From Cladosporium halotolerans (lineage: Eukaryota), in the NCBI RefSeq assembly GCF_011745625.1, contig NW_027191468.1, positions 496,001 through 560,000 on the forward strand: 64,000 bases of DNA. Direction: 5' to 3'. Below are positions 11,583-42,515 of this stretch, one piece after another. Below the pieces are notes generated by a model. The model was not told the origin of the DNA. It did no database searches and saw only the letters and a list, made by a program, of their open reading frames with translations. Made by a program: the position numbers and the translations under genes. How positions within the stretch are numbered: position 1 is the first letter of the stretch; each line of letters opens with the position of its first letter.

Positions 11583-14500
11583 TCAGGCCTCGAAAACCTC
11601 CTGCACCCCGCTCCAATCCCCCTTGACCCTCCGCTCCCAATAACCGCCTTTCTCCTTCAGCTTCCACATCTCCTCGCCGTCGCAGGCCATCTTCTCGAAG
11701 AACTGCGGCTTCCACTCCTGCCCGTGGTTGTCGCGGACCTTCTTGCGCGACCGCTGCCGCTCCTCCAGCTTGGCCTTCGTGCTCTCCGCTTTATCCACCT
11801 CGCCCTGCTCCAGCAAGCGCTGGTCGGGCCTCAGACGGGAGTCCGTGGGCGGGAGGAAGCCGTCCTCGTTCTCCGTGATCTCGTTCAGCGCCGCCGCGAA
11901 AGTCGTGAAGCCGTACACCTTGCCCGTGTCCGGGACGAGCGCGCCCGCCTTCCAGATCTCCGCGCCCGTGTCGGTGCGCTTGAGGCTCTCGGTCCATTTG
12001 CCCGCCAAGCCGAGAGAGATCGGAGCGTCGCCGGCAGCCGGGTCGAACAGCTGCACGGTGACTTCCTCGCTGCGGCCGGCGAACATGCCGCCGGCCTTGA
12101 AGGTGGCGACCGCGCGCGCGCCGCTGCTCTCGTTGACGACGGTCATGCTCTGCACGGGCTCGACGTACTTCTCGCCGGCGATGACGTTGCGCAGGAAGCA
12201 GGTCGCCTGGCCCCAGGAGTAGTGCTCGCCCTTGCCGTCGTTGGGCGCGTGCAGGACGACGTGCGAGCGGCCCTCGGTGTTCAGCTCGACGGACTTGCCC
12301 CAGAACTTCTGCACGGGCTGCGGCGACTGTGCGAAACACCATCCGCCGTTGTTCAGGCTCTCGGCTTGGCAGGCGGCGCGCACGGGGTGGTGCGAGACCT
12401 TCTCGGCGAGGAAGCGGAAGCCCAGGTCCTCGCGGACGAGCTCGTAGGTCTCGCCGAGCATGGGATTGAAGGGTTTGCGGATGGCACGCTCTTTGACGCG
12501 GTTGTATGCGAGGCCTGAGATGGCGAAGGCGGCGACGTAGAGTAGACGCTCGTTTGCAGGAAGCGATGCGGAAGCGGCGGAGTCGAGCAATGGCGAGTAC
12601 TCCATGCATTCCGATAGGCGCTGCAGTAAGGATGTCGGCTCATTTGCGGTGACAGGCATGGAAACGGTTGATAAATCTTTTCCTGCGTTCTTCCTAAGGA
12701 ACCCAATAATGCTAGGTGGAGCCTGCTTGGGCGGGAGCAGGGTGTTTCGACGCTTGGTTGGCGGAAGTGGCAGTGGCGTGAGAGATTTCGGTTTCGGGAG
12801 GATGATGCCAGTGGACGCACTCGCATACATTGACTCGTCCGCGGCGGTGCCGTCGGTGCTACTAGCATCAGAGTCTGCGTATGTTACAGGTTCCTCGGCG
12901 TTGGCCTCGTTTGTATCGTCGAATTCGCTCGAGCGGCGGATGGTGAGGAATTGCGAAGGGGTGTTTGTGCCGTCAACGGCGTCGAAGAACTCCTCGCTTC
13001 TCGTGGATTCCATGGACATGCGAGAAGTCGAAACCGGTAGAGGCGGCAAGCGACGAGCCTTGCTTTCTGCTATCAAAGCGGAGAATCCGCTGACGGCCTC
13101 ATCCAGGTCGCGCAAGAGGGCCATACATCTGTCGTGCACGTCTTCGTCCTGGTGGAGCTGCTGCTGTGACGCCGTTTGTCTGGATTTTGACACGTTGAGA
13201 GATCCAACAGAAGGTGACGCTGGCGCTGGAGATGGAGCGGACACAGCTAGGTGGCCGGACACGGTTCGTCTGAGCAGTGTTGACGGGGCGCGCGTGGCGC
13301 TTGCTGTGCTCGGCTTTCTCTTCCAGAACGGCCGTTTGTCTTGAACTCTCTCGTCGGACACCTCCTGGAAGTAGTCATTGACAGACTCGTGAGAAGCAGG
13401 GCTCGGCATGGTGCTGCTGCTGTTCGAAGTTGTGTGGCTCAAGCCCAAGCCGGAAGCACCAGGAGCGTACTTTGGATCCGTGTCTTTCGCCAGCCTGCGC
13501 ACAGCGTCCCGTGAGCCCGCCACTTTGCTGACCAGCTGCTCGACGCGAGCCCACTCGTTCTGCTCGGCGGGATCGGGCTGTTTGGACCTTATGAAACTCT
13601 GGAAGGTATTTGAGGGCGTAGCCGGTGTAGAAGCAGCATTGGCAGAGGCAGCGGCGCGTTCCAATGCATCCTTCCACCCATCGAAGTCCTTCCTGTTGCT
13701 AGCTTTGAGATGCCACAGCTCCGCACCCGAGTCGACTGTGAACTCCCTGGCTTTCTCATTCACTGCAATCGCAGCGAGCGAGAGCGGGATCGCCCCGCGA
13801 AGCGCAGACGAGTGACGGTCACGGTAGTAGGACAGCGTTGCGGATGTAAAGTCCAACGAAAAGAACCGTCTCGCCAGGCCTTGTCCCTTCTTTCTACGCT
13901 TCTTGTGCAACACTCCGGTGTAGAACGTGGCGCCTTCCAAACCCCGTGACTCAGTCGCGTTCGATTTCGGCCGCGGGTCCTCCAGCACGCCGCGGTGCAT
14001 AGTCGAGTCGCTGTTCAGCGATTCCACCGAGTCCGGCACTGGGCGCAGCGCCGGGCTCGAGACCTTCCTGCCGCCCGGGGCGCTGGGCGCAAAAGCCTGC
14101 GAGTAGTGCAGGTGGTGGCCGGACTTCGGCGGCGCATTGGTCGGGTGCGTCATGAGCACGAAGGTGATCGTCTTGCCCGTCGTCTTGGAGAAGGTGTTAT
14201 CAAACACCAAGCCGTACATCCCGCCCTCGCCCTCCGCGACGTCGTACCGGCCCATCGACACCTTGTCGGCCTCGCATTTACCCGTCCACGCGACCGAGCG
14301 CAGCCCAATTCCTTGCAGCTTCTCCACCAGCGCTTGCGAGGCATGCTTGCTGCTGACCGACCCGCGGTGTCCTCGCTTTCCTTCTTGAACTGGGGCGTCG
14401 GCGCCTGTGGAGGGAATGACGGGCGTCTGCGGCTGGTCGAGGGTTTCGTGCGTTTGCACCGGAGGCGCGAGGCCATTCTTGTGGCCGGGGTGTTTGAAGA

Positions 14501-14689
14501 TGCCGAAGTCAATGCTCTTCTTGTGCGGCTGCACGCTCCATGAGATCGAGTGGTGTTCGGGGACTTGGATCCAGCGGACGAGGTAGCTCTGCATGCACGA
14601 TCGGTCAGGTATGGAGAGCAAGGCTTGTATTATGTGCAGGGATGCCGGCTTACCTTGGAGTGCACGACAATGTTCTCTATGCCGGCCAT
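11583..14689 (-). CDS. OSH3: Oxysterol-binding protein Osh3-like (GOLD-PH-FFAT-ORD); exon 1 14689-14654, intron 14653-14589
   Basis: MAGIENIVVHSK/SYLVRW GOLD start, FDNTFSK, PH domain (GVLHKKRRKK..RRFFSLDF), FFAT motif EEFFDA, ORD signatures KPFNPMLGETYE, EKVSHHP, LPPTDSRLRPDQR. Confidence 0.93.
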
Positions 14690-15461
14690 GTTGCCAGCTT
14701 ACGTAGGTGGCAGGCAACAGAGCACGGCGTTGTTTGTTCCCATGCGTGGCCTGCAGCAGGCGAGGGCTTGTGGTTATTCAGGCCAATTCAATGCACTGCA
14801 GGGTGGCTTTGCTGATATGTTCGTGCGGAACCAGGCGGATGTTTCGAAGTCGCTCGCGGCAGGAAAACGCTCCCTTAGGTATCCGGATCAGCTGGCGTCC
14901 CTCAGCCCAGCAAAGTCCCGCGGTGCCCCGAGGTGTTTGTGATCTGCGCAGGGATGCTTTGCGCGTTGCCGGCCTGCGCGTGTCTACCGAGCCCTGCAGG
15001 ACGGATTGTGGTTGGTGTGGTCGTATACAAGCAGCGCGAATTGTTTACAATGTCAACACGTGCGCAGCGAACGAGGGCGAGCGGTCGCGCGCGGTCGTAC
15101 GAGCGCAGCCCTAGGTAGCCTCCCTCTCCTGTGAAACGCAACGTCTCGTGGCTGACGCAGCCTGCAGACTTTCGGGCCTCGCTTCGCCCAGCCTTACCCA
15201 CACCTCCCCGCTGCCGAGAGGCTACAGACGGGATGCCTGGCAGCCTGGCTGCGTGAGGTGTGATCCGAGAAGATGCGAGGCGGCTCGTTCCTGTTGTAGG
15301 GCTGACGGTGGTGTGAGGATGTCGGTGGTGGCGTGTTCGCGCGCAAGGCACCTACAGGAGATTCTTGCATTGTTCATGAGAAGGTTTCTCGAGCATCTAT
15401 TGAATGCTGGAATCATCAAGGTGATCTTGCAGTGCATCCACTGGAGAAAGACGACGATGTC

Positions 15462-15970: not shown

Positions 15971-17373
15971 ATGGCGGAAACTGGTGCGCAGCAGAGCTCT
16001 CTGAAGCAATTCCTTGCTGTAGGTTCCCCTTCAGTATTTTTCATAACCAAAAAAAAATCCACATCTCCCTCCAAGCATGGCTTGTTGGACCACACCACCG
16101 CCGACATTGGCTGCACTACGAGAACACACCATGATGGAGAAGAAGAACACAAATCAAACCTCAAAAGCACACGAACCCCACACTCACGAGCAACATCAAC
16201 ATCGTACTCGCCGCTTACCTTCTTCTCCAGTCCATCGCCACCATCAAAGGCGACCTAAGCAACATCACCGCGCCCCCCTTCGTCCTCGCAGACAAATCCA
16301 CCACCGAATTCCCCCGCTACTGGATCGAACACCCCGACCTCTTCGTCGCTCCCACGCACGAGCCCTCCCCCGAGAAACGCCTCCTCGCCGTCCTCAAGTG
16401 GTTCCTCGCCTCCCTCCGCGGCCAGCAATACGCCGGCCGCTCGCCATCCGACGGCGTCAAGAAGCCCCTCAACGCCTTCCTGGGCGAAGTCTTCGTCGGC
16501 GAGCTCGGCGACCCGGGCGAGGAGACCAGGCTCGTCAGCGAGCAGGTCAGCCACCACCCGCCCGTGACGGCGTGTTATCTCTGGAACGCGAAGCACGGCG
16601 TGCGCGCGGAGGGCTTCACGAGGCAGGAGATTACGTTCTCGGGCAGCGTGAACGTGCGGCAGACGGGGCATGCGGTGCTGCGGTTGGATGAGTGGGAGGA
16701 GGACTATCTCGTGCCGCTGCCGGATGTGAAGGTCAAGGGGATTTTGACCGGGGGGCCCTATCCGGAGCTTAGTGGCACGTATAGGATTGTGTCGTCGTCC
16801 GGGTGCGTGGCGGAGGTGGATTTCACGGGTAAAGGCGTGCTGGGGCTGGGAGGGCAGAAGAATCATGTGCAGGCGGCCGTTTATGGCGCAAGCAACGAAG
16901 GCGAGGCGAAGAAGAAGCCGTTGTACTCGGCCGAAGGGAATTGGACGGAGAGCTTTACGTTCACGGACTCTGAGGGCAAGACGATCGAGACGTACGACGT
17001 CGCGTCGGCGCCCGTGACGGAGTGCCGGACGGCGCCGTTGGACGAGTAGGATGCGTGGGAGTCGCGCAAGGCGTGGCGCGGCGTGATCGACGCGATTCAC
17101 GTTGGGGACATGCAGAGGGTGTCGGACAGCAAGAGCGCGCTGGAGAACGCACAACGGGCCTTGCGGAAGGAATCGGGAACGAGCGAAGAAGAATGGCGAC
17201 CGCTCTTTTTCCGGAAAGAGGATCGGGATCCGGTAGCGGAGAAGCTTCTCGAGGCCGTGGGGGAGTCATTGGATGTTGACGCCACCTGTGGGATCTGGAG
17301 GTTTGACGTTGAGAAGGCCACATCATTGGATCGACCTTGGAGAGCTCAGCTCACTCCACATGGGCTGGAGTGA
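15971..17373 (+). CDS. Short oxysterol-binding protein, Kes1/Osh4 family, interrupted by one in-frame TAG at 17047-17049 (pseudogene, recoded allele or sequence error); intron 16019-16230
   Basis: SLKQFLA/SIATIKGDLSNITAPPFVLA, KKPLNAFLGEVF, EQVSHHPP, GGPYPEL; then APLDE*DAWESRKAW...LENAQRALRK...WRPLFF continues in the same frame to TGA 17373. Confidence 0.88.
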
Positions 17374-19919
17374 GGCAATTGGGGCTGTTACGACTGCCTT
17401 GTGATCTACGAAGGCGGCAGGTGGAGTGGAGTGGCTCCGGGAGACCACCCAGTTGTCTGAGAGTCTATGACAAGCCAACTAGTAGGCTACCTAGCGGGGA
17501 TTCACTATTGCCAGTCCAGGTAGCTTTTACAGTACTATTGAAGACATTGTCGTAAGCGTCTGAGGAGCCTCTCGGCAGTCAAGATACGAGTTCGAGGTGC
17601 TATTATTCCCTATGGGGCATGTGAACTCCACGTCGACCAGGGCGACCATTGGAAGTTGTGATGCCGTGGACTGTCGGATAAACTGATGGAAGGAGCAACA
17701 GGGTGGGCGGCCCTTCCGGAAGGATCGTGGGTCACCTTCGGGAGTCTGCACGGTTCGAGGCTAGGCAGTTCTAGAGCATGAATCGTAGGGCATGGTGTGT
17801 TGGCAGTCTATCATCAGATCGGGCAGCAACTGAGCAATCGTCGTTACGTTGAGAGTAGAGCTAGTCATTGGCGCAGAAGCATGCGGACGTTGCGCGAAAA
17901 AACTTCCAGAAGTTCCAAGCGCTGAAACATGCGGAAGGCCATGATGCGTGCGTGCGCGTGGGTAGGGCATTTTTTCACGACGTGTGGGGACCCCCGGCAG
18001 ATAGCACACCCTTCTGGAGATGAAATACTTTGGCTCGCACGAGTCCCGGCTCGAGGCATATGGGGTGTAATGGCGCGATGATTCGATGGCCGCTCCTGGC
18101 CGCGTAGGCTGAAGTGTCATGATCCTGCCGTTCCCGCAAGGCTGACAGGGCAGCTTGGAGAAGCCAAGGTTCTGTGATCCACCTCGAATCCATCTCCATC
18201 CGACCCCAGTCCCGGCGCGCGTAGAGGCGGGCGGTGCGGCCTCGGTGCAATGATGAATTCCAAGGCGGCGACGCGACAGCAGTACCTTGCAGGATGGAAG
18301 TGGATATTCTTCGGAAACGCGCCGCCAGGAACCCAATTGACGGGAAGCGGGCCCTGAGGACGGTCCTGTCGATCATGGGGCTCGGGCGGCGTCTCAGATT
18401 GGTTGCGCATCTGTGAGCGCTACGGCGAGGGTGTTTGGGTTGGGACGCCAAACGGTCGGGGTCGAGCGCCGACGCAAGCGCACTTGCACAGCGTCGCGCT
18501 GCCGAATTGGGCCTGATGATAAGATTCATCAGCGCCAAGCCCTGGACGTTGTCGGTTTTGATCAAGCCGCTGCGATCGGCATTGGGCGCAACCTTGCCAA
18601 TTAGACATGTGATACCGCCGCAGGAGAGGCGCCGGAATTGCCTCCTTAAATGATAGCGAGAGGTATATCGGCCTTGGCGCTGCAATGCTTGTCACAGCGC
18701 CACCGTGGTAGTACTGTTGAGGTGGCGAGCGCAGAGGATGACCGACAACTCGCAAGTGCCATCGCCGGCCTCGACGCGCATGCCGCAACCGACGCCTGGC
18801 ACGATGGTTCAGGCCCCACGGAGGGCCTCGTGGAGGCCATGACGGAGCGAGTGGGCACCGCGTGCGACGTCGAGCAGCGACCGAGGCGCTGGAACGGCGC
18901 GGTGGTTACAGGGTGGGCGTGGGCGGGCGCTGTCGAAAGCTTGCGGCGATCCTACCGCGATGCGCAGCCGCAGCGCAGCGCTGGCGGTGGTGGGTGAAGA
19001 CGCCGACTGGCGGAGGGACCATGGGACGCCCAAGCGGCGAAGAGGGCACAAGCATTGTCGGCGAAGTGGCTTGAGAGGGCGAAGATCATCATCAGTGAGA
19101 GGGCGAGGAGGGCGTTGCGACTTCTCCCTTTGTCGTTGGTCGTGCTCAGGCTGCGAGACCCGCTCTGCCCTTAGGCCAACAGCGCGGATGGGCGATGTCC
19201 CCCTGAGCGGCGACCTGAATGGTGGCTGACGGTGCGGACGCCGGGTGGGAGTGCCAGGTGGATGATAACGGGCGGATAAGCTTTGCTCCTCCACGGTGGG
19301 CTGTCACCCACGGCGAGCCAGTCTAGACTGCTTGCGGCGGTGCGATCTGGCGTGGCGATAACGACGTCGCCGGGGTGTGAAGACAGATAGCGCGACCTGT
19401 CAACACGGGCGCAGTTGCACGACACACTACCAGGGACTGTACTGAACACACAGGGAGCAGCAAGCAGGCGTTCGCGAGCGCCACGCCCCAGGCACCGAAC
19501 CTTGCTTATAGGAGGGCGCTGGCGGTGCCCCTGCGCAGGCTGTCTATTTCGGTGCGCTGGCCAGCCCGTGGCGCAAGCTGGTTTGATTGATTGACGGCGG
19601 ACGGAGTGACAAAGACGGGCCGCCTGCAGCCACACGCCACCGACGCACGCGGGTGGAGGAGCACACCACAGTGACCACACACTACTACCAGGACCAGGTA
19701 CCACCCGCACACAGCAGGGCGGCAGGGCACACGTGACTCGGAGGACGTCCGTCAGCGCATCATCGTCGGATTCGTCGCTATCTACGCCGGACTGCCAAGT
19801 CAACGGTGCCGGGTTAGCCCCCTCGGCCCTCTACCACGGACAGGAGAGCGCGCCGGCTGCCCCGTTCGCCTGCGCGGCGCCTGCTCGCCAGACGAACCAG
19901 CGCAGACAGACACCCGCAC

Positions 19920-19938
19920 ACGCACGCACGCACGCACG
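19920..19938 (+). repeat. (ACGC)n microsatellite, about 4.7 units
   Basis: acgcacgcacgcacgcacg seen directly. Confidence 0.7.
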
Positions 19939-21255
19939 TAGCGGTGGCGGCACTCGCTGTTCACACGCCGGGAGGCTACCATCGACGAGCGTTCTAGCGA
20001 TGTTCGCCCGACCGGCACCGGCAATGCTGTTCGCGCGGCCCAAAAGCAGGACTGGCTTCGCGCGCCAAACCCTCGCGTGGTGCCGTCGCGTGTACCTGCA
20101 GCGAGGCGCCCATGTGCCGCCCGCCGGCTGGGACGAGATGCGAACCTTGAGCGTCGATCGCGCGTGCAATCGACTGGTCCGGCGGATGACGAGAGCGTTT
20201 CAATCTAAAAGACTGTGCAGATGCTTGCCCGCCCCTGCTAGCGCTCCCGCTGCCTTCCCGGCATGCAAATTTCAGCCGGCCGCCGCCCCGTAAGGCAGGC
20301 TGGCACGGTGGACCTCACTTGCTGCGTCCGGCCGGCCCAGCAGCCTCCAGCCTTGCACCACCTCCCATGCCGCCCTGCAGCGCGTCTTTGCGTCTTTGCA
20401 CTCGCCCGCCCGTGCAGGCCCTCAACACCCCCCCGAGCCCCGGCGAGCGAGGGCGTGCCAGCAGGGCGGTCTGCGCAGTCCGGAGTCCGCGCCGCGTGAT
20501 GTTCGTCCCCCAGGGCCAGCCCAACGGCGTACCGCGCTGCAATCGCCTTCGGCAGCCATGCGCGAGACAAGCCGCTAAGGGCGGGCTCACACTGTCTTAT
20601 TGCACCAGTTGCCAGCGCAGGGCCCCATGCCCTCCCGTATCGCCTATGCTGCTCGCCACCCGCGCCGAGCCCTACGCTCTAAGCCCTGCAACATGGCCTG
20701 CGTGACGCCGAATCATTCGAACGCGTACGCCAGATGGCTCTCAGCCGCCAGATCGCGGATTGACAGGTCTCGAGTTTCACGCGAACTGGAGTTTACTGGA
20801 TCTCCCACGCCGGTGTTCAAGCTAGCCTCCCAGGGTGGGATGGAGATGGCACAGCACGGACTTGTTGCAGAGATAGTGGGTCTGTGGACCGACCGTTGTT
20901 CGGGTGTATTTAGGGCGGCGCGGCGCTACAGACGGGTGGTGATGTTGATGCAGCATCCTTCATTTTCGTGTTGAGCGGCCGCGTGTTTTTGGGTTGACGA
21001 TCTTTCGGTCTACTGTGCACGCTTTCGTCTCGATCTCCAGCTCCACTTCCCTCGAAGACCTCTCCACCACACTCGCTTTGTTATAGACGCTCTTTCCTGC
21101 ACCGTATCCTTCTGGGATCAGTACCCCGGCTCCTCATCTGGACTTCCCATCTTGCCATCCCCCACCACCTGTCCGGCCGGAGCTGCATCCTTCAGCAGCG
21201 GACCTCGACCATAGTGTCTCCCTTTCAGTAAACACGCGCTCTACCAGGCTTCGCT

Positions 21256-24200
21256 ATGGCGAACGCCGTCGGCCAGATCGAGGCATTCGCCTTGGCCTCC
21301 AGCCTTCCTCACTCTAATGACCTTACGAAATACTTCTCATTCACACAACAAGCCGTCGCTTCCGGATCGCCAGATCGCACACAACTGCTCGCGCAGATTC
21401 CCAGATCCAGCGTTCCCTCCTATGGACCTCTCTCTACCCTGTCGGCTCTCCTGTCGACACTGCCTGGATCATGGCCCATCCTCCGTCTCCAGCAGACCTA
21501 CACCGAGCTTTGGAAGCAGCTGCCCAGCGAGGCAAAGGCTGGCAAAGCGCCTGAAGCCGCGAAGAAGCTGCTTGACCTCGTTCTCCGCCAGTGCAAAGAT
21601 TCATACTCGTCGATGACCGACCTGTTCCACCCCGAGGTCACGTCGACTGCTATGATCAACCCCGAAGATGGTCAACATCTCACCCACCACGAGCTCGCCA
21701 GCTGCGTTGCCGACTTCAGATTGCCTGTGACTGCGATTCCTGGCCAGAGCAAGCCCGTAGTGGCAATCTCTCTCCCTAACGGTCCCACGTTGGCCCTCAC
21801 AGTCCTGGCCACGGCCTCTTACTACACTGCCGCTCCCGTCGCCCACGGAAGTGGTGTCGGTGCCGAGCAGTTCAAGTCCGACGTCCTTCAATCACAGACT
21901 AACCTGGTGTTGGCTGCGCCTGCGGATGTCGATCGCCTAGGCCTTAGAGACCAATGGCTGGCCGACGCTAGCATTGAGGTGTTGCTGGTCGAGCTTACAG
22001 CCGACATGAAACTGCAGCTCCGTGACACCAACGGCAACCCTCGCCACGATTCGCACTTCTGGCCTCAGCCTGCTCCTAACTCCGCAGACGACATCGGCAT
22101 AATGCTCTTCACCTCTGGTACCAGCGGAACGAAGAAGCTTGTGCCTTTGTTCACCCACTCGCTTGTCTGCGGCGCGGCCATGGTCATCGACTCCTGGGGA
22201 CTGTCTCCCAGCATGCGCTGCTTGAACCAGATGCCTCTCAACCACGTTGGTGGTCTGGTCCGTAACCTTTTCGCACCTGTCATGTCTGCAGGCTCGGTCA
22301 TCTGCTGCGCTGCGTACGACGCCAACTTGTTCTGGGACTGCGTTGAGGACCACGCTCCTACCTGGTACTACGCCTCTCCAAGTATGCACCAGGGTATCCT
22401 GGAGGCTGGCGCCGACCGACCGGAGACCGTCGCCAAGAGCACCATCCGACTGATTTGCAACGCCGCTGGCGGGTTGCTTCCCAGTCTTGCACACCAGCTC
22501 AAGGACACTTTCTCCGTCAGCGCACCGACGACTGTTCTGCCTTCCTACGGTATGACCGAGTGTATGCCTATTTCCACACCCCCTCTCAACTACAAGCTCG
22601 ACAGGACCGGTACATCTGGTGTGTCTGTCGGCCCCGAAATTGCGATTCTTGATGGCAACGACTGCTACATCGAGGACGAGACCGTTGGCCGCATTGCTGT
22701 CCGCGGATCTCCTGTCTTCAATGGCTACCTGAAGAACAACAAGCTTGACACCACTTGCTTCAACGAGGAGGGTTGGTTCGACACTGGTGATATGGGATAC
22801 CTCGATGCTGATGGCTTCCTGTACATCACTGGCCGCAGCAAAGAAGTCATCAACCGTGGTGGTGAGCTGATCAGTCCCTTCGAGGTCGAGGAGGCCGTCG
22901 TTGCAGCGGGTGCCAACCCTGACTCGCCCGTCTATGGACGCATCACCAAAGCCCTCGCTTTCTCCGTCACCCATGACGTTCTGCAGGAAGTCGTTGGTAT
23001 TGCCGTCGTCACACCCGAAGGCGCGCCTCGTGCCGATCTTCGCGGTTTGACCGAGGCTGTCAAGGGCACCTTGTCCTCTGTCAAGATCCCCGTCTTCATC
23101 GTATTCATGGACGAGGGCGTGCCTACCAACAACAACAAGGTTCTGCGCATCAAGCTTGCCGACCGTCTCGATCTTCCCACCATCTCCGATAGCACTCCCG
23201 CATCCGAGCGTTACTACGAGGCTGACTGCCCTCCCAACAACACCCCTCTGAAGGAGCCTATCGCCAGCCGCCCTCTCCAGGTCTCGCACGAGGAGCTCGA
23301 GGAGACTGCCAAGCAGGTCCTCCCTGCGGACGTCGACGTTCACGTTCGCGAGGACGAGTCTGGCTTCTACCCTCAGCTCGTTCTGGCGCCCACTACCGAC
23401 TCGTCCTACCCCGGCACCGTTGGCGACATCTCTGCCGACATGCTTATCCTCAAGCTTTCGGAGAGCCTGCCTGGCTACCTTACTCCTAAGCGTGTTCACC
23501 AGCTTCAGGAGCCTTTGCCTCGCAGCCGTCAAGGCAGCGTCGACACTATTGCTGTGGAGAAGCTCGTGAACGTCAAGCCCGTCAAGAGCTCTGGCGCCAC
23601 CGGCCTCTCTCCCAGCGAGGAGAAGATCGCGGATGCGTTCTCGTCGATTCTCGCCATCCCGATGGGTGATCTCGATGGCACTTCCGACTTCTTCGATCTC
23701 GGTGGTGACAGTATGAAGGCTGGCCGTCTTCTGTCTGCCCTCCGCAAGGAGTTCAAGGTTCGCCTTGCCATTGATGCGCTATTCACCAACAAAACCGTCT
23801 CTGGCCTGGCCAACATCATTGATGCTAAGATTGGCGACGAGAAGAAGGGTGCCTCTGCCACTGCGACTGCTGTCGAGCCGGAACCTCTTCCTGGCCTTGA
23901 CGTGACCTGCAGCTCCACCAACCCCTTCCTCATGCTTCTTCAGCTCGTGCCCATCGGTATTCTTTACCCGATGAAGCGCGCTCTGACCTGGACTGTCTTC
24001 ATGTACTGCATGTCGTACACTCAGAACCTCAGCACCAACAGCTCCGTCCCTGGTCGTCTTCTGGACTTGGTCGTCTCCATTGCCATTGGCAAGTGTGTCA
24101 CCAAGATTGTCGCTCCCTCTATCTCCATCGCTGTCAAGTGGATCGTTATCGGCAAGCACAAGGAGGGTCTCTACCCGATGTGGGGCAGCTACCACACCAG

Positions 24201-26502
24201 GTGGTGGTTCGTCCAGAAGACCATCGAGACCTCTGGCATTGGTCTTTTCGGCATGTTCAACTGGACTAGAATCCTCTACTACCGTCTCCTCGGTGCCAAG
24301 ATTGGCAAGAATGTCCAGATTGTCCTCGGCGCGAAGCTCGGTGAATACGATCTGATCAACATCGGCGACAACGTCGTGCTCGAGCGCTGCAAGGTCCGTC
24401 CTTTCGCTGCTGAGCGCAACACCTCCATGTACCTTGGACGCATTGACATCGGTGCCAACTGCTCTGTCGGTGTCGCCTCCAGCGTCGCTGCTGGTGCCAA
24501 CCTCCCTGAGAACACCTGCATCGGTCCGAACTCCTCCAGCTGGGAGATGTCTGGCGCCGATGAGTCGAACCGCGACCTGAACCAGTCCATGATCCCGAGG
24601 GGTCACTGGCTCCTCAACTGGACCATCGGTCTTCCCCTTGCCATTATCATCATCTTCTGCGGCTGCATTCCTTGGCTCGCTGCTCTCGTTGGTATGGTCT
24701 ACGGAAAGCCTGGTGGCAACCACCCTGACAACCTCCGCACCGTCCTCATTTGGTTCTCTGAGCCCGAGCGAGTTGGTTTCCACTACCTCGCCATGGCTGC
24801 TCACTCTGGCGTTGGTCCGTACTTCTTCTTCTTCGCCTTCCTCTTCGTCAAGACTTTCTTCGACGCCTGCATGGGTGTCCAGAAGGGTGGCTCTTGGCAG
24901 GGACAGTCCAACATGGCCAAGTTCCGTCGCGATTTCATGAACACTATGATGCCTGCTTCTCAGTTCCACAGGCTCACTGAGCTGTTTGGCACCCACTACG
25001 AGTCCACTTCGATCTTCGCGAGGATGCTCGGAGCCAAGATTGGCAAGCGTGTCTACTGGCCTGGCACTGGTCCGACCATCCAGGACTGGGACCTCATTGA
25101 GATTGGCAACGACGTCGTTTTCGGCTCGCGTTCTCACCTTGTCACGACTGACGCTCACGGTAGCGACAAGGTCAAGATCAACAGCGGTGCCATGGTTGCT
25201 GACCGTGTTGTCCTCCTCCCCGGTGTTGAGATGGGCGAGAAGACTGTCATGGGCAGTGGTGCGCTCACTCGTCGCAATGGCTACTACGCTGATGGCTCCA
25301 CCTGGGTCGGCTCCAAGAACGGCGAGGCTGTCTGCCTGTCCTCACCCGACTCCGCCTCCACCGCTACCTCGCCTTCCCTTGGCCGCAGGACTGAGATGTA
25401 CTACGACCTGAAGAAGGCCAACCCCCCGATCCCGACCACCAGCCTCAACTCTTCCAGCACTACCCTCGTCAAGCAGACTCCCATCGACTCTGAGCAGTCC
25501 AGCCTGTACGCCGTCGAGGAGGGCCACGAGCTCAAGTTCTTCTCCAACGCCGACCTCAAGGATGCTCAGCGCGCCAACGCCTACCGCATGTCCGCCATGG
25601 TTCGCGACATTCCTGATGACGACCCTACCACTCCCGCCGAGGACGAGTCCTCCTCTCCTTTCGGTCGCGCCTTTTACCAGGGCCAAGCTTCCTACCACGT
25701 CTGGGGCCAGTTCTTCATCTTCTGCTACTCGACTCTCATCATCATCGCTGTCGCTGTCTACTGGAACATCGGCTCTATTGGTGCCGTCCAGGTTGTCGGT
25801 AACCTCGTGCGCCGCGACGACTACTCCGAGTACGTGATGGCCGTCGCTCCCGAGCGTCCTGTCATCCTGTACTTCATCTTCTGTGCCCTCATCATGGGTA
25901 TCATGGGCGCTCAGACCATCATCGCTCTCCTCGCCATCATTGCAGTCAAGTGGATTCTCATGGGCCGCCGCACCCAGGGCAACTACGACTGGGACAAGTC
26001 CCCCTACTGCCAGCGCTGGCAACTCTTCCTCAAGTTCGAGTCCTTCCGCCGCACCTGCTACGGCGGCCACGGCATCCTCGGCCTGCTTACCGGCACCGCC
26101 TGGGTGCCGATGTACTTCCGCTGCCTCGGCGCCGAGATTGGCCTGGACTGCTCCATCTTCTCCTCTGGCACTCCCTCGCTCTACTTCACTGAGCCCGACC
26201 TGCTCAACCTCGGCAACCGCGTCTGCGTCGACGACGCCTCGCTCGTCGGCCACATCAACACCCGCGGCAAATTCGACCTCAACCCGCTGTACGTCGGTGA
26301 CCGCTCCGTGCTGCGCTCCGGCTCGCGTCTGCTGTCCGGCGCCCGCATGGAGCCTGACACCTGCCTGCTCGAGCACACGCTCGTCATGGCCGGCGACATC
26401 GTCGACCAGGGCTCCACCTCCCAGGGCTGGCCCGCCGAGGAGTTCAAGGGCAACCGCATGCCCACGCTCAAGGCGCAGAAGCACTGGGTCATCGCGGAGT
26501 GA
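21256..26502 (+). CDS. Membrane-bound NRPS-like polymer synthetase (A - T - 3x TM/left-handed beta-helix); Pls / poly(malic acid) synthetase-like
   Basis: Intronless 1748-aa ORF with strongly C/T-ending codons. A motifs FTSGTSGTKK, MPLNHVGG, SYGMTE, WFDTGDMG, GRSKEVINRGGE. Carrier site DFFDLGGDSM (Ser codon 23710-23712). Three C-terminal repeats with LGAKIG/LGAEIG hexapeptide runs and KW..IG/MG..G.Y.W motifs between hydrophobic helices. Confidence 0.88.
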   Translation: MANAVGQIEAFALASSLPHSNDLTKYFSFTQQAVASGSPDRTQLLAQIPRSSVPSYGPLSTLSALLSTLPGSWPILRLQQTYTELWKQLPSEAKAGKAPEAAKKLLDLVLRQCKDSYSSMTDLFHPEVTSTAMINPEDGQHLTHHELASCVADFRLPVTAIPGQSKPVVAISLPNGPTLALTVLATASYYTAAPVAHGSGVGAEQFKSDVLQSQTNLVLAAPADVDRLGLRDQWLADASIEVLLVELTADMKLQLRDTNGNPRHDSHFWPQPAPNSADDIGIMLFTSGTSGTKKLVPLFTHSLVCGAAMVIDSWGLSPSMRCLNQMPLNHVGGLVRNLFAPVMSAGSVICCAAYDANLFWDCVEDHAPTWYYASPSMHQGILEAGADRPETVAKSTIRLICNAAGGLLPSLAHQLKDTFSVSAPTTVLPSYGMTECMPISTPPLNYKLDRTGTSGVSVGPEIAILDGNDCYIEDETVGRIAVRGSPVFNGYLKNNKLDTTCFNEEGWFDTGDMGYLDADGFLYITGRSKEVINRGGELISPFEVEEAVVAAGANPDSPVYGRITKALAFSVTHDVLQEVVGIAVVTPEGAPRADLRGLTEAVKGTLSSVKIPVFIVFMDEGVPTNNNKVLRIKLADRLDLPTISDSTPASERYYEADCPPNNTPLKEPIASRPLQVSHEELEETAKQVLPADVDVHVREDESGFYPQLVLAPTTDSSYPGTVGDISADMLILKLSESLPGYLTPKRVHQLQEPLPRSRQGSVDTIAVEKLVNVKPVKSSGATGLSPSEEKIADAFSSILAIPMGDLDGTSDFFDLGGDSMKAGRLLSALRKEFKVRLAIDALFTNKTVSGLANIIDAKIGDEKKGASATATAVEPEPLPGLDVTCSSTNPFLMLLQLVPIGILYPMKRALTWTVFMYCMSYTQNLSTNSSVPGRLLDLVVSIAIGKCVTKIVAPSISIAVKWIVIGKHKEGLYPMWGSYHTRWWFVQKTIETSGIGLFGMFNWTRILYYRLLGAKIGKNVQIVLGAKLGEYDLINIGDNVVLERCKVRPFAAERNTSMYLGRIDIGANCSVGVASSVAAGANLPENTCIGPNSSSWEMSGADESNRDLNQSMIPRGHWLLNWTIGLPLAIIIIFCGCIPWLAALVGMVYGKPGGNHPDNLRTVLIWFSEPERVGFHYLAMAAHSGVGPYFFFFAFLFVKTFFDACMGVQKGGSWQGQSNMAKFRRDFMNTMMPASQFHRLTELFGTHYESTSIFARMLGAKIGKRVYWPGTGPTIQDWDLIEIGNDVVFGSRSHLVTTDAHGSDKVKINSGAMVADRVVLLPGVEMGEKTVMGSGALTRRNGYYADGSTWVGSKNGEAVCLSSPDSASTATSPSLGRRTEMYYDLKKANPPIPTTSLNSSSTTLVKQTPIDSEQSSLYAVEEGHELKFFSNADLKDAQRANAYRMSAMVRDIPDDDPTTPAEDESSSPFGRAFYQGQASYHVWGQFFIFCYSTLIIIAVAVYWNIGSIGAVQVVGNLVRRDDYSEYVMAVAPERPVILYFIFCALIMGIMGAQTIIALLAIIAVKWILMGRRTQGNYDWDKSPYCQRWQLFLKFESFRRTCYGGHGILGLLTGTAWVPMYFRCLGAEIGLDCSIFSSGTPSLYFTEPDLLNLGNRVCVDDASLVGHINTRGKFDLNPLYVGDRSVLRSGSRLLSGARMEPDTCLLEHTLVMAGDIVDQGSTSQGWPAEEFKGNRMPTLKAQKHWVIAE

Positions 26503-27151
26503 AAGAAAGCTCGCCAATCAACCTCATACCCGTGGACCTTGTCAGTTCGCTTTGCTTTACGCTGCTGCTTTGCTCTCGATCGTTCAAGCCCCAGCAACAA
26601 GCTCTGTTTTTCTCTCTGCCTTTAAGAGACTTCTTTCGTACCATTTTCTCTTCGTCTCTTTCTTTCTTCTATACCTCTTTCTTGTCTTTTCTGAATTACT
26701 CGGGATACCCAACCGACAACGCGCTTTCTCTTCCCCTCGCCTCGCCTCTCAGAGGGGAGGCTGGGGGGAAGCAAGAAAATACACAAAAAGCGTTCTCGAC
26801 CGCGCTCGCATTCGTTCTTGCATACACGCACATATACATACGTTCGCTGTTTTGATAATCGGGGACCGGTCTGGGAGGCGTTCCTGCTTGCTTTTTATAT
26901 TTTTTGCGATCATGACCAAATAGAGGAGGTGGGAAAACGCGTCTAGGGGAATCAACAACAACAACGATGTATGTTGTCGCGGCGTGCGTCGCCGTCGTTT
27001 CTACTATTACTACCTTTTCTTACTACTACTACCATCTCTTTTCGTTCTTTTCTTCATGTCGTCCTTAGGTACTTTAATCGCTAGTCCGCGTCGGCCGATA
27101 GGCCCAGATGCACAAACATATTGTACATATCTCATCCATCGAACAATATCA

Positions 27152-27169
27152 CATCATCATCATCATCAT
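27152..27169 (+). repeat. (CAT)6 microsatellite
   Basis: catcatcatcatcatcat seen directly. Confidence 0.75.
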
Positions 27170-28104
27170 GAAACAAACACCCTCGCCCCGTCATACATAC
27201 ATCCTCAACAACCAATCCCTGCGCACGCGCGTCGCCTCTTCGTCCCAGGGAGACGCACGACGCACTCTCACCTTGGCGCGTCGCCGGGAGGTCGACTTAA
27301 GCTCGCCGCGCGTGGCGCTCGCAAACTTCCAGCCCGCCCCTCGCTTCCGCACGCCTGGGTGGTTGCGCAACGCGCTTACCTCCGCCCCTCGTATTTTCTT
27401 TACCTTGGCTTTTTAGGCGAGAGCGTTTCGTGTTCTCGCTTGCTGCCGGTAGGGCGTAGGGCGGGAAGGGGGTTTCTGGGTTCTTGGGATTTTTCTTTTT
27501 TCGGGACGGAGTCGGTGGCGCCGCGGGATGGGGGCTCGTCCCGTGTTCTCGGTCGTGCCGACTGCCCGTATTTTCGCTCGTGTTCTTTTCTTGGATAGGT
27601 GGATGGGTGGATGGATTTTGACTAAATACGCGAGACGAGGGTAGGGTTCGGGTTGTGTTCCGTTTTCTTTATTTGGAGGCGGGAGACGGTACAGACGTAT
27701 TTGATGGTGGTGGGTTTGGTGGAGGGTATTGATGGTCAGGCGTCATTATGCGATTCGCGTGCCTTGACCGAGTTTGATGTGGTCGAACGAGTGATGTTTG
27801 CGTGAATGTGAGTGAGTTCATTGCGGAATCGTTATTTACACGTTATATCGTCTTGACGTTGCTATGCTCCTGCTTCTCCATCTTAGGATGCCTCTTGAAT
27901 GCCTTCCAACTACGCCACCTCTCAACGCCACTCCTTACTACTGCTACACTTACGGCGCCGCCATAGCATCCAAAGCCCAAACCTTCTAGGTTGAAGACGT
28001 TGAGATGTAATCCTTTGTAAAACGCCTCGCTCTGCAAACCCACACGATCGCCAAATCATTCATAAAGCCCACAGGCCCCTTTCACATCATCGTCAACTTG
28101 ACTC

Positions 28105-29173
28105 TTACGCAGGCGCCTCATACGGCTTGACGAGCATCTCGCTGAACTTGGAGATGCTCTCGGTGCCGCGGACCTCGTCGACGAGCAGCGGCATCTTGAC
28201 GACGTGGAAGTCCTCGCCGTACAGGTCGTCGATCTGCTCCAGGTATTTGCGCTGCATCTTGCGGCGGCTGTTGCACTGCGCGCACGGGTTGTCGGCGCTG
28301 GGGAACAGCAGCTGGTTGACGACCATGGCGTGCGTGTCGATCTCGTAGCTGCCCAGCTCTTGGATCATGCGCTCGGTTTCGTAGAGGGAGAGGAATTCGG
28401 GGATCAAGACAGGGATGAAGCTGTTGTTGGGAGAGTTAGTGATGTTTGTCAAGGGGTATGTGCTCGATGTTAACTTACGTCGTCAGGTCGGCGTCCTTGA
28501 ATTGCTTGTTCACCTCGCCGATAGTCGCGCGCAGGTCCTCCATCTTCTTCAGCACGTCGTCCAGGCTCTGGCCGTTGGGCAGGCCGCCGCGCGCGCCCAG
28601 CACGGAGTTCAGCATGGGCCCGAACTGCTGGCTGAGCTGGCTAAGCTTCTCCAGCGCCTTCTCCATGACGGTGGGGAACTGTAGGAAGCGCAGCGTGTGG
28701 CCGGTGGGCGCGGTGTCGAAGATGACCACCTCGTACTCCATGCCCTTGACCTGCTTGAGCACCTCGGCGAAGCTCATCGCCTCGTCCACACCGGGGATGC
28801 TGAACGCCATGTCCTGGAACATGTTGCCCACGCCGCCCAGGCCCTGCATGGCTTCCTGCGCGTCGTCGCCGCCGGCCGAGATCAGGTCCTGGATCGAGCC
28901 GTTCGGGTCGATCTCCATCGCGGCCAGGTTTTCCACGCCGGGCACGGGCCTGGCGTCTTTGCCGAACTTGACGCCAAAGGCGTCACTCAGGTTGTGCGCG
29001 GGGTCGGTCGAGATGAGCAGGACGGACTTGCGGGCGCGCGCCATCTGCACGGCGAGCGAGCACGAGGTGGTGGTCTTGCCGACACCGCCCTTGCCGCCGA
29101 CGAAGACCCATTTGAGCGTCTTCTGGTCGAGGATGGGCTGGAGCGAGGGCGCGAGAGCGTCTGCGTCGGCCAT
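28105..29173 (-). CDS. GET3: ATPase Get3/Asna1 (tail-anchored protein targeting); intron 28478-28421
   Basis: [11 protein letters not shown]-loop, [39 protein letters not shown] and CxxC (CAQC). Intron is GTAAGT..ACTAAC..CAG. Confidence 0.97.
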
Positions 29174-29578
29174 GGTTGGAGGGGTAGTCTGTTCTTGTGT
29201 TGTGTAGTCGTGTCTAGCAGTGTATGTGTGCGAGGGAGGGTGATAAGTGTTGGCGATACCGTAAGTGGAGAGAGAGATTGAAGCGTGCGAGAGGGTGTTT
29301 CGCTGCCTAGAAGGTTGGACGAGGGCGGGTGGTCAAGTGGGATAGAGTTGGCTGCACGTGGCTTTGACGATTTGGAGCAGCAGCCCACGCGGCGACGTCA
29401 GATGGAGGGCGCTGTGAGACCCTTCACGCGCCACGGCCCTCGAGCTTGCACCGCCACATGTGGCTGCGATTTTTCTGCTGCGAAGCCCGACCAGCCGAGA
29501 ACTTTTGGCTGCTCGTTCATGTGATCCTGCCACGACAAACACCACCCACACCCACTCTCCACCACAAATACACACACA

Positions 29579-39568: not shown

Positions 39569-40120
39569 CATGTGGTGGCCGAGTGAATTTCCTTAATTGC
39601 TGCGGCGCCGCGAAACTCAGGGGGGCGACAAGCGACGCAGCCCCAGGCGCCGTCCCGATTGGCCGGCGGTGGGGAATGGCGCTCAGGGTCAGGCACTGGA
39701 GCATCTTCACGCCCGCAGTCCGCCCTTGGGACTCCCTACTGCGCTGCGGCTGCCGGGCCACTTCGCACTGCCTACGTGTGCGCTGCACCTCGTCGACTCC
39801 TCCCGCACGCCACTCCTCACCTCACTTCACCTCACCTCCCACGCGAGCCCGTGTCGCCCGTGGCAGTGCTGCTTGCTGCGCCGCCGTCCGTTCATTACCC
39901 CCCGCCCACCAGCCAAACACCTCCCACCGCACTTTGCGCCGCATACCGCGACTGGGCCATACCACCATCTCGCGACCCACCGTCTTGCCCGTCGCGCCAC
40001 GCCCGAACCAACCACTCGACCACTGTATTCTCTTTCTCGGACCACGAACGGCAGCATATCGAACTCACGCATGTCCACCGGCCGCTCCACTCCACTCACT
40101 GCATCCGCAAATCCGCAACC

Positions 40121-42515
40121 ATGGCCCGGCGACCCGCACACCTGGACTTATCCAAGTCGCATAACAACGCCGACTTGACACCTCCACGCTTTCCAAACTT
40201 CCATGTGGACCTACCTTCTCCGCGTTCTGGCGAGGCGCCGCCCGCCCTCTCGCCATTGGACGCCTTCGCCCAACACTCGCGCATGCTTGCTATGAAGTTC
40301 GACCAGGAAACCGAGGACGGAAAGCGACTCAGTCGCTTGCCGCATGCCGACGTCGCAAGGGAACTCGCGAATAGGCCAGGCTATTTCAGAAGCGTTAGCG
40401 GCAACTCTGATAGTGGCATGAGCGATCTTGGCGAGGTATCGGACGAGGACAGGCCCACCACCAGCGATCGCTATACGGTCAAAGAGGAGACCAAGAACAA
40501 GCACAAGAGTCAGTATCCGATGCTGGGCAACTTTGGCAGAGACAGCCAGAGACAGTCTGCAGCCTCACATTTCTACGACGTCCCAGAGCCTTCACCAATA
40601 CGAGAGGAGCCCAGGGACTATTTCAACATCGGCGCTCCTAGGGCTTCTTCACCGGAGGCCGTGGAGGCAAATGCCGCGAACGTCGGAGCACCCTCACCTA
40701 ACCTTCCACCGAGTTTGACAAGCAGTGTGGACTCGTATCGGTCTATGTCGCATCCGCGAACCCTCACCAATGGATCGACTCGCTCCCAGAAATCAGACCA
40801 AGGATTCCTGCTTCCCAAGTCGCCAGCCTTCACAAGCTCGCCAAGGAGCAAACAAAACGCCCGGCCAATGCGACAGGATAGCGGGGAAGACGAAGGTTCA
40901 CAATCGGGACGCCAGCCGCGTTCACAGTCGAGACCAGCTTCCCCATTCACGAACGTACCTGCAACCAAGCGATCTCCTTCTGCAGCTTCAGAGCGTTCCT
41001 TGAATGGCTCTTACTCCCGCTTGCCGAAGCCTTCATTCAATTTCTCTCGGCCTTTGAGCAGCCACGGCAACCAACTAGCATTCGACGGCAGGAAATCGAG
41101 TGACGGTCGACCGTCGTTTGAAACCCGTCCGTCAACTGAGCGCCCCCACAGGCCTTCCGCTGCGTCAACCATGACCGTGGGAACAACAACAAGCACACCT
41201 CTGTCAAGGCAGGTGTCGCAAGATGATGAAGTCTGCAAGCCTGCTGCATCATCGCAAGCAAATGCTTCAACGCCGAAACCTGTCAAGCGCCAAGACAGTG
41301 ATATGTCTAGCAATGGCGCTCCTCCCCAGACCGCTCAAGGTGAGGATCTTCCTCGTGGCAGAGAAATGTACCGTAGCTCCGCCGATCAACGTACATCTTG
41401 GATCCACAACCAATTCAAATGGGATAATTCGTCAGAGGATCTGAGGAAGACCGTTGGCCAAGCATCAAAGTATGATTCCACCGTAAAGCTCGTAAGCCGT
41501 GAGAACTCGCCTACGCCGTCGGAAAGGCTTCAAAAGATGGCGGAACTGCAGATCGAGGCAACAGAGCGTCTGGGAAGGAACGCTGGATTCTCATCGATGG
41601 CTCGCAGTCGAAGCGCTGATCCACGCGCCGGCTCGAGGGCAAATGCGAAGCACAACCCGACTCCCTCCGTGCAGACTGACAGCACCGACCGCACAATCCG
41701 ACAGACTCCCTTGCATCAACGCGCGCCATCAGCGGAGTTAACGGCGGAAGAGCATCTCGAAATCGGCATTCAAGCGCACAGCTCTGGCTCCCTCACCAAG
41801 TCTACATACCACCTGCGGCTTGCAGCCAGGGAGGGCTTGCCAACCGCAATGCTCCTGTATGCGCTCGCTTGTAGGCACGGCTGGGGCATGCGTCCGAACC
41901 AGGAGGATGGCGTGGCCTGGCTGCGCAAGGCGATTGAGGGTTCTGGACTGCAGCCCTCGGACGTCGAGCAGACCCTCACCAATGCCTCCAGGATGGACAG
42001 CAAGGGTGACCCCGCGGCTGAAGCAGCAGAGCGCAGGAAAAGGAAGGCACAGTTCGCGCTGGCAGTCTACGAGCTTGGAATCAGCTACATGAATGGATGG
42101 GGCTGCCAGAAGGACAAGGCCCTTGCCCTGCAGTGTTACGAAGTTGCTGGTGGTTGGGGTGATTGCGATGCTCTGGCCGAGGCTGGGTACTGCTACACCC
42201 AAGGCCTCGGGTGCAAGAAGGACATGAAGAGAGCAGCAACTCTGTACAGGAAGGCAGCCGATTTGGGCATGTCGATGGCTGGAAACAGCTGGTGAGTTCC
42301 GCTTATAAGAACAATATCTTCGGGTCATCCTAACACTGACCGCTTTTAGGATCTACAAGCCCAAGTACATGGACGACCCGGCTGCCGAGAAAGGCAAAGA
42401 TTCGAAACGCCCGGAGACCATATTCCTGGGCAAAGACCCCAATCAGAAAGACGCCAACAAGCCTGCTGGCCGGTCAAGAGCGCGCTCCATCTGGGGAAGG
42501 AAGAAGGAGAAATGA
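40121..42515 (+). CDS. Sel1-repeat protein, Dsf2/Nif1-like cell-cycle regulator; intron 42292-42349
   Basis: Ser/Pro-rich N-terminus, then AMLLYALACRHGWG, LAVYELGISYMNGWG, DALAEAGYCYTQGLGCKKD and spliced GNSWIYKPKY. ATG 40121 (CAACCATGG) preferred over the ORF-track start at 39659. Confidence 0.85.

Follow-up and report, generated by a model that had tools for sequence, protein, structure and literature searches.

A putative polymalate-synthetase-type membrane enzyme encoded in Cladosporium halotolerans

The 64,000-nucleotide stretch of the Cladosporium halotolerans genome analyzed here (contig NW_027191468.1, positions 496,001 to 560,000; hereafter the window) carries a gene for a nonribosomal peptide synthetase (NRPS)-like protein of 1748 amino acids (P0001; Table 1), which is most likely a stand-alone, membrane-embedded enzyme of a family already described in Aureobasidium. 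Its membership in the family of polymalic acid (PMA, polymalate) synthetases is very probable and, with less assurance, polymalate appears to be its likely product. This reading is carried by the architecture of the protein, by its homologies, by the replacement of the residues that confer oxalate specificity in related enzymes and by a substrate pocket code identical to that of the Aureobasidium protein.

Domain layout and adenylation pocket

The intronless gene model is sound because 35 homologues (about 1650-1790 amino acids), including full-length ones of 1727-1759 amino acids, can be aligned with the 1748-residue protein from Met1 to the C-terminus; the in-frame extension 5' of the ATG amounts to 8 codons. 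An identical sequence is already present in NCBI/UniRef, in a cluster at ≥90% identity with a protein of Cladosporium fusiforme, the closest named relative (~90%). Among the four Pfam families found in the protein at E ≤ 0.01 are AMP-binding (PF00501, residues 131-492, E 4e-42), PP-binding (PF00550) and Hexapep (residues 1306-1337, 27.8 bits vs. a cut-off of 27), and none is a Condensation, thioesterase (TE) or reductase family. A preceding sequence-only reading had proposed an intronless open reading frame (ORF) with an adenylation (A) domain, a thiolation or carrier (T) domain and three hexapeptide modules with transmembrane (TM) helices, lacking condensation, TE and reductase domains, all of which was borne out by the ORF, Pfam, hydropathy, the NCBIfam model TIGR02353 and AlphaFold. 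The presumed phosphopantetheine attachment site of the T domain is Ser819 in the motif GGDS (nucleotides 23710-23712), and D811, F812, F813, G816, G817 and S819 are invariant in an alignment of 36 sequences.

According to hydropathy and AlphaFold, the C-terminal half contains six TM helices arranged as three pairs, each pair followed by a left-handed β-helix (LbH) domain (C1 to C3). Residues D1659, D1660, S1662, H1666, N1668, R1670, E1706 and H1707 are invariant in module 3, and E1053 and H1294 are further invariant positions of the LbH domains. TIGR02353, the terminal-domain model for Pls and PosA, matches the protein in three stretches (E 3e-53, 181.1 bits), and each module matches it on its own, with E values of 1e-27 for module 1 (residues 908-1094), 8e-12 for module 2 and 5e-16 for module 3. 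Internal repetition is evident between C1 and C3 (24% identity, E 7e-11) and marginal between C2 and C3 (E 0.009). The layout likened by the sequence-only reading to that of Pls, with A and T domains, six TM helices and three tandem LbH domains, is thus the one found. Of the comparison with TIGR02353 proposed there, the match itself came out as expected, but the score lies under the curated cut-off of 423.1 bits.

An AlphaFold model of residues 880-1748 reached a mean predicted local distance difference test score (pLDDT) of 64 and a predicted template modelling score of 0.67, module 1 scoring mostly 80-90. In a wide VIA-align search, C1 (model residues 73-235) was superimposed on the LbH acyltransferases 8vr6_A, 3srt_A and 2iu8_A with a Z score of 10.5 over 105-138 residues (root-mean-square deviation 2.8-3.8 Å); LbH folds were retrieved for C1 only, and since this one domain filled the list, the search hardly covered C2, C3 and the TM bundle. 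Foldseek retrieved nothing from the PDB at E ≤ 0.001 with the C-module model, its weak matches all being of the LbH acyltransferase class, and a PDB sequence search with the C module gave only marginal matches to LbH acetyltransferases (best E 0.0075). No Pls-type structure was found in the PDB by sequence or fold, nor was a cryo-EM structure of Pls found in the literature. In soluble LbH acyltransferases, three subunits assemble and the active sites lie at their interfaces; by analogy, the three tandem LbH domains in a single chain could form a pseudo-trimer.

The A domain is of the ANL type shared by acyl-CoA ligases, with a P-loop (TSGTSGTKK, residues 286-294), gate His330 and catalytic Lys628. 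Its 25 best NCBIfam matches are acyl-CoA ligases (FadD7 family with 203 bits, malonyl-CoA synthase, o-succinylbenzoate-CoA ligase and others), all scoring far under the cut-offs of their models, and the best relatives of solved structure are the oxalyl-CoA synthetases 6qjz (E 3e-55), 5ie0 (E 4e-49) and 8aff (E 4e-47). In amino-acid-activating NRPS A domains, the Asp that binds the α-amino group sits in the A4 region; here this region reads MPLNHVGG, placing H330-V331-G332 where those domains have the Asp. An A domain outside the amino-acid type, as claimed from the sequence alone, is well supported by its best relatives. The motifs MPLNHVGG (326-333), WYYASPSMH (370-378) and SYGMTE (430-435) align with LPLFHVHG, WYTAVPTIH and AYAMTE of the oxalyl-CoA synthetases. 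The resemblance to oxalate-CoA ligases noted earlier is hence real as regards motifs and closest solved relatives, but does not extend to the residues that bind oxalate.

According to passages of PMC8905533, the oxalate pocket of AtAAE3 is lined by V215, H216, C288, S289, A313, M314, H319 and K500, and S289 and H319 set its specificity for oxalate. Counted along two pairwise alignments with oxalyl-CoA synthetases, V215, M314 and the catalytic K500 are kept in the window protein (V331, M433 and K628), whereas H216, C288 and A313 are replaced by G332, A403 and G432, and the two oxalate-specific residues S289 and H319 by A404 and P438. In addition, A220, the Ala six residues past the gate His of AtAAE3, corresponds to R336. 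Four positions are smaller than in AtAAE3, and the pocket (V331, G332, G333, R336, N337, A403, A404, G432, M433, P438) therefore appears from the alignments to be larger and more open than that of an oxalyl-CoA synthetase. A longer acid would fit into it, and the family-invariant Arg336 is a candidate partner for the distal carboxylate of such an acid.

This pocket is strongly conserved in 33 family representatives, which range from ascomycetes to a chytrid, a basidiomycete, a mucoromycete and a diplonemid. The 12-position code HVGGRNAAGMPK is identical in the window protein, in A. pullulans P0087 and in proteins of Hortaea and Trametes. H330, G332, G333, R336, G432, P438 and K628 are kept in all 33 representatives with a complete A domain, A403 and M433 in 32 each, A404 in 28 and N337 in 27.

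Relatives, distribution and the link to Aureobasidium

The PMA synthetase of A. melanogenum was reportedly described by Wang et al. in 2020, and to our knowledge Aureobasidium is the source of the only identified polymalate synthetase. The enzyme of A. melanogenum ATCC 62921 (QHD40385.1) is NRPS-like, combines an A-like, a T and a C-like domain with six TM regions and lacks a TE domain; its gene comprises 5049 bp, is under Crz1 regulation, and its deletion abolishes PMA (passages of PMC9210645, PMC11286673 and PMC11905612). The same passages agree with the statement of the sequence-only reading on an Aureobasidium PMA synthetase of similar A/T/membrane layout.

Of 8000 candidates scored in a word-indexed protein search, 868 reached E ≤ 0.001. 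The best 120 of these matches, from Dothideomycetes, Sordariomycetes, Lecanoromycetes, an Orbiliomycete and chytrids, all carry AMP-binding and PP-binding and nearly all carry Hexapep, with 47-90% identity and a coverage of mostly 90-100%. They include a single Aureobasidium cluster, of 126 members (A. pullulans, A. melanogenum and A. subglaciale), whose proteins have 1688-1690 amino acids and the Pfam families AMP-binding, PP-binding and Hexapep. Across 98% of its length, the window protein shares 50-52% identity with P0087 and P0124 from Aureobasidium. We infer that this cluster represents the published PMA synthetase.

An exhaustive search with a profile of the C-terminal module yielded 3520 cluster representatives at E ≤ 0.001, 529 of them at E ≤ 1e-30. 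All 52 listed proteins of at least 1200 amino acids (49 representatives and 3 references) also match a profile of the window-type A domain; the motif MPLxHxGGxxR is present in 41, the other 11 having a partial A domain or failing this simple pattern. Distant fungal members come from the basidiomycete Trametes elegans, the mucoromycete Halteromyces radiatus and the chytrids Polychytrium, Nowakowskiella and Physocladia, and members outside the fungi from the green alga Mesostigma viride and from Artemidia motanka, a diplonemid by NCBI taxonomy. Mean column identity across 36 sequences is 57%. No paper found describes this spread across eukaryotes, the literature retrieved for PMA, poly(L-malic acid) (PMLA) or polymalate synthetase dealing with Aureobasidium or with unrelated topics, and no PMA synthetase from outside Aureobasidium was found there. 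Some distant members (among P0202, P0214, P0215, P0226, P0236 and P0262) are 1970-2200 amino acids long, their A domain beginning at about residue 250-450 after an N-terminal extension; one of the extended proteins is from Mesostigma viride, and another is labelled carbonic-anhydrase-like (LbH) by JGI.

Maximum-likelihood analysis of 36 sequences over 1686 columns (LG+G4, with Shimodaira-Hasegawa-like approximate likelihood-ratio test (SH-aLRT) support) gave a tree in which the window protein stands beside Cladosporium and Rachicladosporium (support 100), within a clade of Capnodiales type. There is no sign of old paralogues in this tree, because each named species occurs once, apart from strains and a recent chytrid duplicate; the window's own genome lay outside the search. 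Sequences from Dactylellina haptotyla (Orbiliomycetes), a Xylariomycetidae species and a Kalmusia species (Pleosporales) were placed in the Capnodiales/Mycosphaerellales-type clade and not with their own classes, for which gene transfer, contamination or poor resolution are possible explanations.

Proposed chemistry and alternative readings

We infer the substrate, the ester chemistry and every chemical step by analogy with Pls, as its layout is given in passages of PMC7179176, and with the published PMA model. The A domain would adenylate the β-carboxyl of L-malate with ATP, and the malyl group would then be loaded onto the T domain, at the phosphopantetheine arm of Ser819. The three membrane-held, LbH acyltransferase-like domains could then catalyse a hydroxyl attack on the thioester, with either free malate or the growing chain supplying the hydroxyl. 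Iterative rounds, each of which would free the T domain, would lead to poly(β-L-malate), much as Pls builds ε-poly-lysine, and the polymer may leave through the TM bundle. A TE domain would not be needed because the chain would never be covalently held. The acid-activating membrane polymerase envisaged from the sequence alone is thus supported, with polymalate as the favoured product, while the undescribed acidic polyester named alongside it has become less likely since the family was already described in 2020.

Several points weigh against this assignment. The link to QHD40385.1 is drawn from the described architecture and from length (5049 bp published vs. 5067 bp for the 1688-residue protein of A. 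melanogenum), and the 18-bp difference, together with the lack of a direct alignment with QHD40385.1, leaves a small doubt that the Aureobasidium cluster is the published enzyme. The function of that enzyme is itself based on genetics, and complementation restored only a third of PMA, according to review passages. The tree places Aureobasidium in another deep subclade, with Myriangiales and two lichen fungi; the branches parting the two subclades are short (0.049) and have SH-aLRT values of 91-94. The role of Arg336 is read from sequence, the A-domain pocket loop being unreliable in the AlphaFold model (pLDDT < 50 at residues 430-459). No report of polymalate from Cladosporium was found in the literature, and the one paper examined among those that mention both cites PMA for Aureobasidium only. 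Furthermore, the family occurs in organisms without known PMA, e.g. Fusarium, Verticillium, lichens, Mesostigma and a diplonemid, so that either PMA has been overlooked in them or the product of the family is something else. Of the Crz1-type promoter motifs reported for the Aureobasidium gene, the only ones upstream of the gene here (GTGGCGCA at 19568 and CAGCCAC at 19627, 60 bp apart) lie about 1.65 kb away, and such motifs are not in excess of chance (GNGGCKCA 21 times vs. 33 expected; CAGCCAC 20 times vs. 12.9 expected, with 4 of 100 shuffles reaching 20); these counts are not evidence either way. Nowhere in the window is there a homologue of the major facilitator superfamily (MFS) transporter gene found at Aureobasidium-type loci.

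It is conceivable, though we consider it rather unlikely, that the same family and chemistry lead to something other than free polymalate, be it a polymer of another hydroxy- or dicarboxylic acid or a malyl-type ester on a membrane or cell-wall acceptor such as a polysaccharide or lipid. The LbH modules weakly match the polysaccharide O-acetyltransferases WcaF, HpsU and NeuD (E 4e-4 to 4e-3) and, by fold, sugar N/O-acyltransferases, and by a review passage fungal PMLA is membrane-embedded and perhaps polysaccharide-bound (PMC9210645). The conservation of the family in many taxa without known PMA and the housekeeping neighbours of the gene point the same way, and the portions of the literature found contain no in vitro demonstration of what the Aureobasidium enzyme uses as substrate. 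Against this, the pocket code agrees fully with that of the Aureobasidium protein, and deletion of that protein abolishes PMA; moreover, three tandem domains with six TM helices are the layout of iterative polymerases (Pls, PosA) and not of simple O-acyltransferases.

The two kinds of enzyme that the protein resembles in its separate halves offer much poorer accounts of the whole. An oxalate-CoA ligase fused to extra domains and acting in oxalate turnover would be in keeping with the closest solved relatives of the A domain, and with the public name "Oxalate--CoA ligase" carried by homologues from Pseudocercospora fuligena, Fulvia fulva and Acrodontium crateriforme (P0013, P0016 and P0021). 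Yet the protein is no such ligase given that both oxalate-specific residues are replaced, with Pro at the position of H319 in 33 of 33 representatives and Ala at that of S289 in 28. Moreover, a covalent T domain and a membrane module of 900 residues would have no role in a CoA ligase, the known ligases being stand-alone soluble proteins of about 55-60 kDa, and the ligase models of NCBIfam are matched far under their cut-offs. This candidate was rejected as very improbable, and the public names are probably wrong, since the oxalate-binding residues are replaced throughout the family. Even less credible is an ordinary Pls/Epls-type synthetase of a cationic poly(amino acid), ε-poly-lysine or similar. 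It would share the layout and the threefold match to TIGR02353, and beyond its own family the neighbours of the protein in the protein atlas are bacterial Pls/PosA clusters. Nevertheless, the A domain aligns with acyl-CoA ligases and has H330-V331-G332 at the Asp position, all 52 long proteins listed from the C-module profile search carry an ANL-type A domain, and the TIGR02353 score remains far from the curated cut-off; the candidate was rejected on both its A domain and this score. Fungal Epls, in addition, has retained the lysine pocket and is known chiefly from Clavicipitaceae (passages of PMC7179176). A polymalate synthetase thus remains the preferred reading.

Genomic setting and comparison with known systems

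Seventeen flanking ORFs were scanned with Pfam and nine of them have assigned families (Table 1); none of these encodes a tailoring enzyme or transporter, in agreement with the housekeeping neighbourhood seen in the sequence-only reading. Because of these housekeeping neighbours, and with no MFS homologue present, the synthetase gene stands alone in the window. The adjacency to the Get3/ArsA-type gene is kept in the related loci L003, L004, L006 and L011 (57% identical synthetase). In a gene model from Peltaster fructicola (P0056, 2062 amino acids), the oxysterol-binding-protein family PF01237 is fused to the synthetase; here the gene model has probably merged the same two neighbours. The ~3.9 kb directly upstream of the gene (17400-21200) have a GC content of 0.62-0.64 and hold only Arg-rich, junk-like ORFs without a Pfam family; the two Crz1-type motifs lie in this stretch, and L001, L004 and L006, which are closely related loci, show weak conservation of its part at 20579-20971. 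The ORFs at 17.4-21.2 kb and at 26924-27598 were taken as non-coding on account of their Arg-rich translations and lack of Pfam families.

Table 1 Features of the synthetase gene and of its surroundings (positions in the window, except for the two MFS genes, which are given in their own loci)
Feature	Position	Strand	Residues	Basis or remark
PMA-synthetase-type NRPS-like enzyme (P0001)	21256..26502	+	1748 + stop	single ATG-to-stop ORF, no introns
N-terminal region	21256..21645	+	1-130	family-conserved; nearly invariant columns, e.g. W73, P90, K94, Y117
A domain, ANL/acyl-CoA-ligase type	21646..23175	+	131-640	Pfam PF00501; oxalyl-CoA synthetase alignments
T domain	23620..23817	+	789-854	Pfam PF00550, E 3e-15
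Module 1	23914..24594	+	TM1 ~889-922, TM2 ~931-965, LbH C1 ~966-1113	hydropathy, TIGR02353, AlphaFold, VIA-align
Module 2	24607..25335	+	TM3 ~1118-1148, TM4 ~1180-1208, LbH C2 ~1219-1360	contains the Pfam Hexapep match
Ser/Thr-rich linker, C2 to TM5	25336..25650	+	1361-1465	AlphaFold pLDDT 20-40; poorly conserved
Module 3	25651..26499	+	TM5 ~1485-1519, TM6 ~1534-1569, LbH C3 ~1575-1740	hydropathy, TIGR02353, AlphaFold
Nop14 gene	6914-9655			upstream; Pfam
Oxysterol-binding-protein gene	11586-14777	-		upstream; Pfam
Oxysterol-binding-protein gene	16135-17373	+		upstream; Pfam; adjoins the synthetase gene in related locus L013 too
Get3/ArsA-type ATPase gene	~28000-29332	-		downstream; Pfam; apparently with an intron
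Utp15 gene				downstream; Pfam
Alg9-like mannosyltransferase gene				downstream; Pfam
SAS4 gene				downstream; Pfam
Sel1-repeat protein gene	39587-42292	+	902	downstream; C-terminal Sel1 repeat; weakest codon bias of the ORFs measured (effective number of codons 54.6)
MFS gene, locus L015	9381-9965	-		synthetase of the locus 90.8% identical to A. melanogenum P0124
MFS gene, locus L016	8680-9824	+		synthetase of the locus 99.8% identical to A. pullulans P0087

Partner genes were compared across 15 related loci, for which 45 of the 75 flanking ORFs were scanned. The flanking genes vary by lineage and are mostly of housekeeping type (N-acetylglutamate synthase, DEAD helicase, Ndc80, Sir2, cation-efflux protein and aspartyl protease), MFS transporter genes occurring only in the two Aureobasidium-type loci. 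These two genes are orthologous (88-91% identical) and lie within about 1-2 kb downstream of the synthetase-type gene, in opposite orientation between the loci.

The synthetase gene has an effective number of codons (ENC) of 37.0, with third-position frequencies of 0.51 for C and 0.04 for A. Values of 42-55 were obtained for seven of eight neighbouring ORFs, the Get3 fragment alone being lower (34.7), and the strong codon bias claimed from the sequence is therefore real relative to the neighbours. It makes a high expression of the synthetase gene plausible, and together with the housekeeping setting it would fit a constitutive role at the cell envelope of Cladosporium and not one in secondary metabolism.

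For the window alone, the finding is an expected member of a known family. It is possible, and we put this forward tentatively, that PMA-synthetase-type enzymes are no Aureobasidium speciality and represent an old, eukaryote-wide group of membrane polyester synthases that share a single, fixed substrate code. In that case a widespread eukaryotic polymer, polymalate or a closely related acidic polyester, would have been overlooked, and the family would be an obvious candidate for the Physarum PMLA synthetase. As a biodegradable polyanion, polymalate is in demand for drug carriers. Should Cladosporium and hundreds of other eukaryotes share the enzyme and its pocket, many natural variants could be mined for chain length and yield, and the comparison with oxalyl-CoA synthetases points to G332, R336, A404, G432 and P438 as the residues of interest. 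It also raises the question of what role a conserved polymalate-type polymer may have in fungi without known secretion of such a polymer.

Compared with the PMA synthetase of A. melanogenum, the window protein has the same A-like, T and C-like membrane regions with six TM helices and without a TE domain, and shares with the Aureobasidium family member the pocket code and the invariant carrier Ser; it is of similar length (1748 vs. ~1682-1690 amino acids). In contrast to Aureobasidium, its host belongs to another order of Dothideomycetes and the protein itself to the other deep subclade, its gene has neither an adjoining MFS transporter gene nor Crz1-type motifs within 1.6 kb upstream, and PMA production, known for Aureobasidium, is not documented for the host in the literature found. 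With the oxalyl-CoA synthetases AAE3 and Pcs60 (PDB 5ie0-5ie3, 6qjz and 8aff), the A domain shares all ANL core motifs, the gate His and the catalytic Lys. It differs in the replaced oxalate-binding Ser and His (A404, P438), in an opened pocket (G332, G432) with the invariant Arg336, and in its attachment to a T domain and a membrane polymerase module, whereas those enzymes are soluble.

The predicted fold of C1 is that of trimeric LbH acyltransferases such as maltose and galactoside O-acetyltransferases, LpxD and sugar N-acetyltransferases, at a sequence identity of 10-24%. Unlike these, the window protein holds three non-identical LbH domains in one chain, with a TM hairpin before each, and its acyl donor would be a thioester on the carrier domain and not an acyl-CoA.

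The chemistry of Pls itself was reportedly worked out by Yamanaka et al. in 2008. In its layout, a single A-T pair is followed by six TM helices interleaved with the tandem domains C1 to C3 (passages of PMC7179176). The window enzyme shares with Pls and Epls this single-module A-T arrangement, the six TM helices, the three tandem LbH-type domains, the lack of a TE domain and homology to TIGR02353, and its mode of action is probably alike, with repeated transfer of the unit bound as a thioester on the T domain to an acceptor that is free. Nevertheless, its A domain is of the acyl-CoA-ligase and not of the amino-acid adenylation type, and its TIGR02353 score (181 vs. 423 bits) makes it homologous to Pls and PosA while leaving it outside the curated family. 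Its own family is distributed broadly among eukaryotes, whereas Epls is reported mainly from Clavicipitaceae in the passages cited above, and the bond that it forms would be an ester and not an isopeptide.

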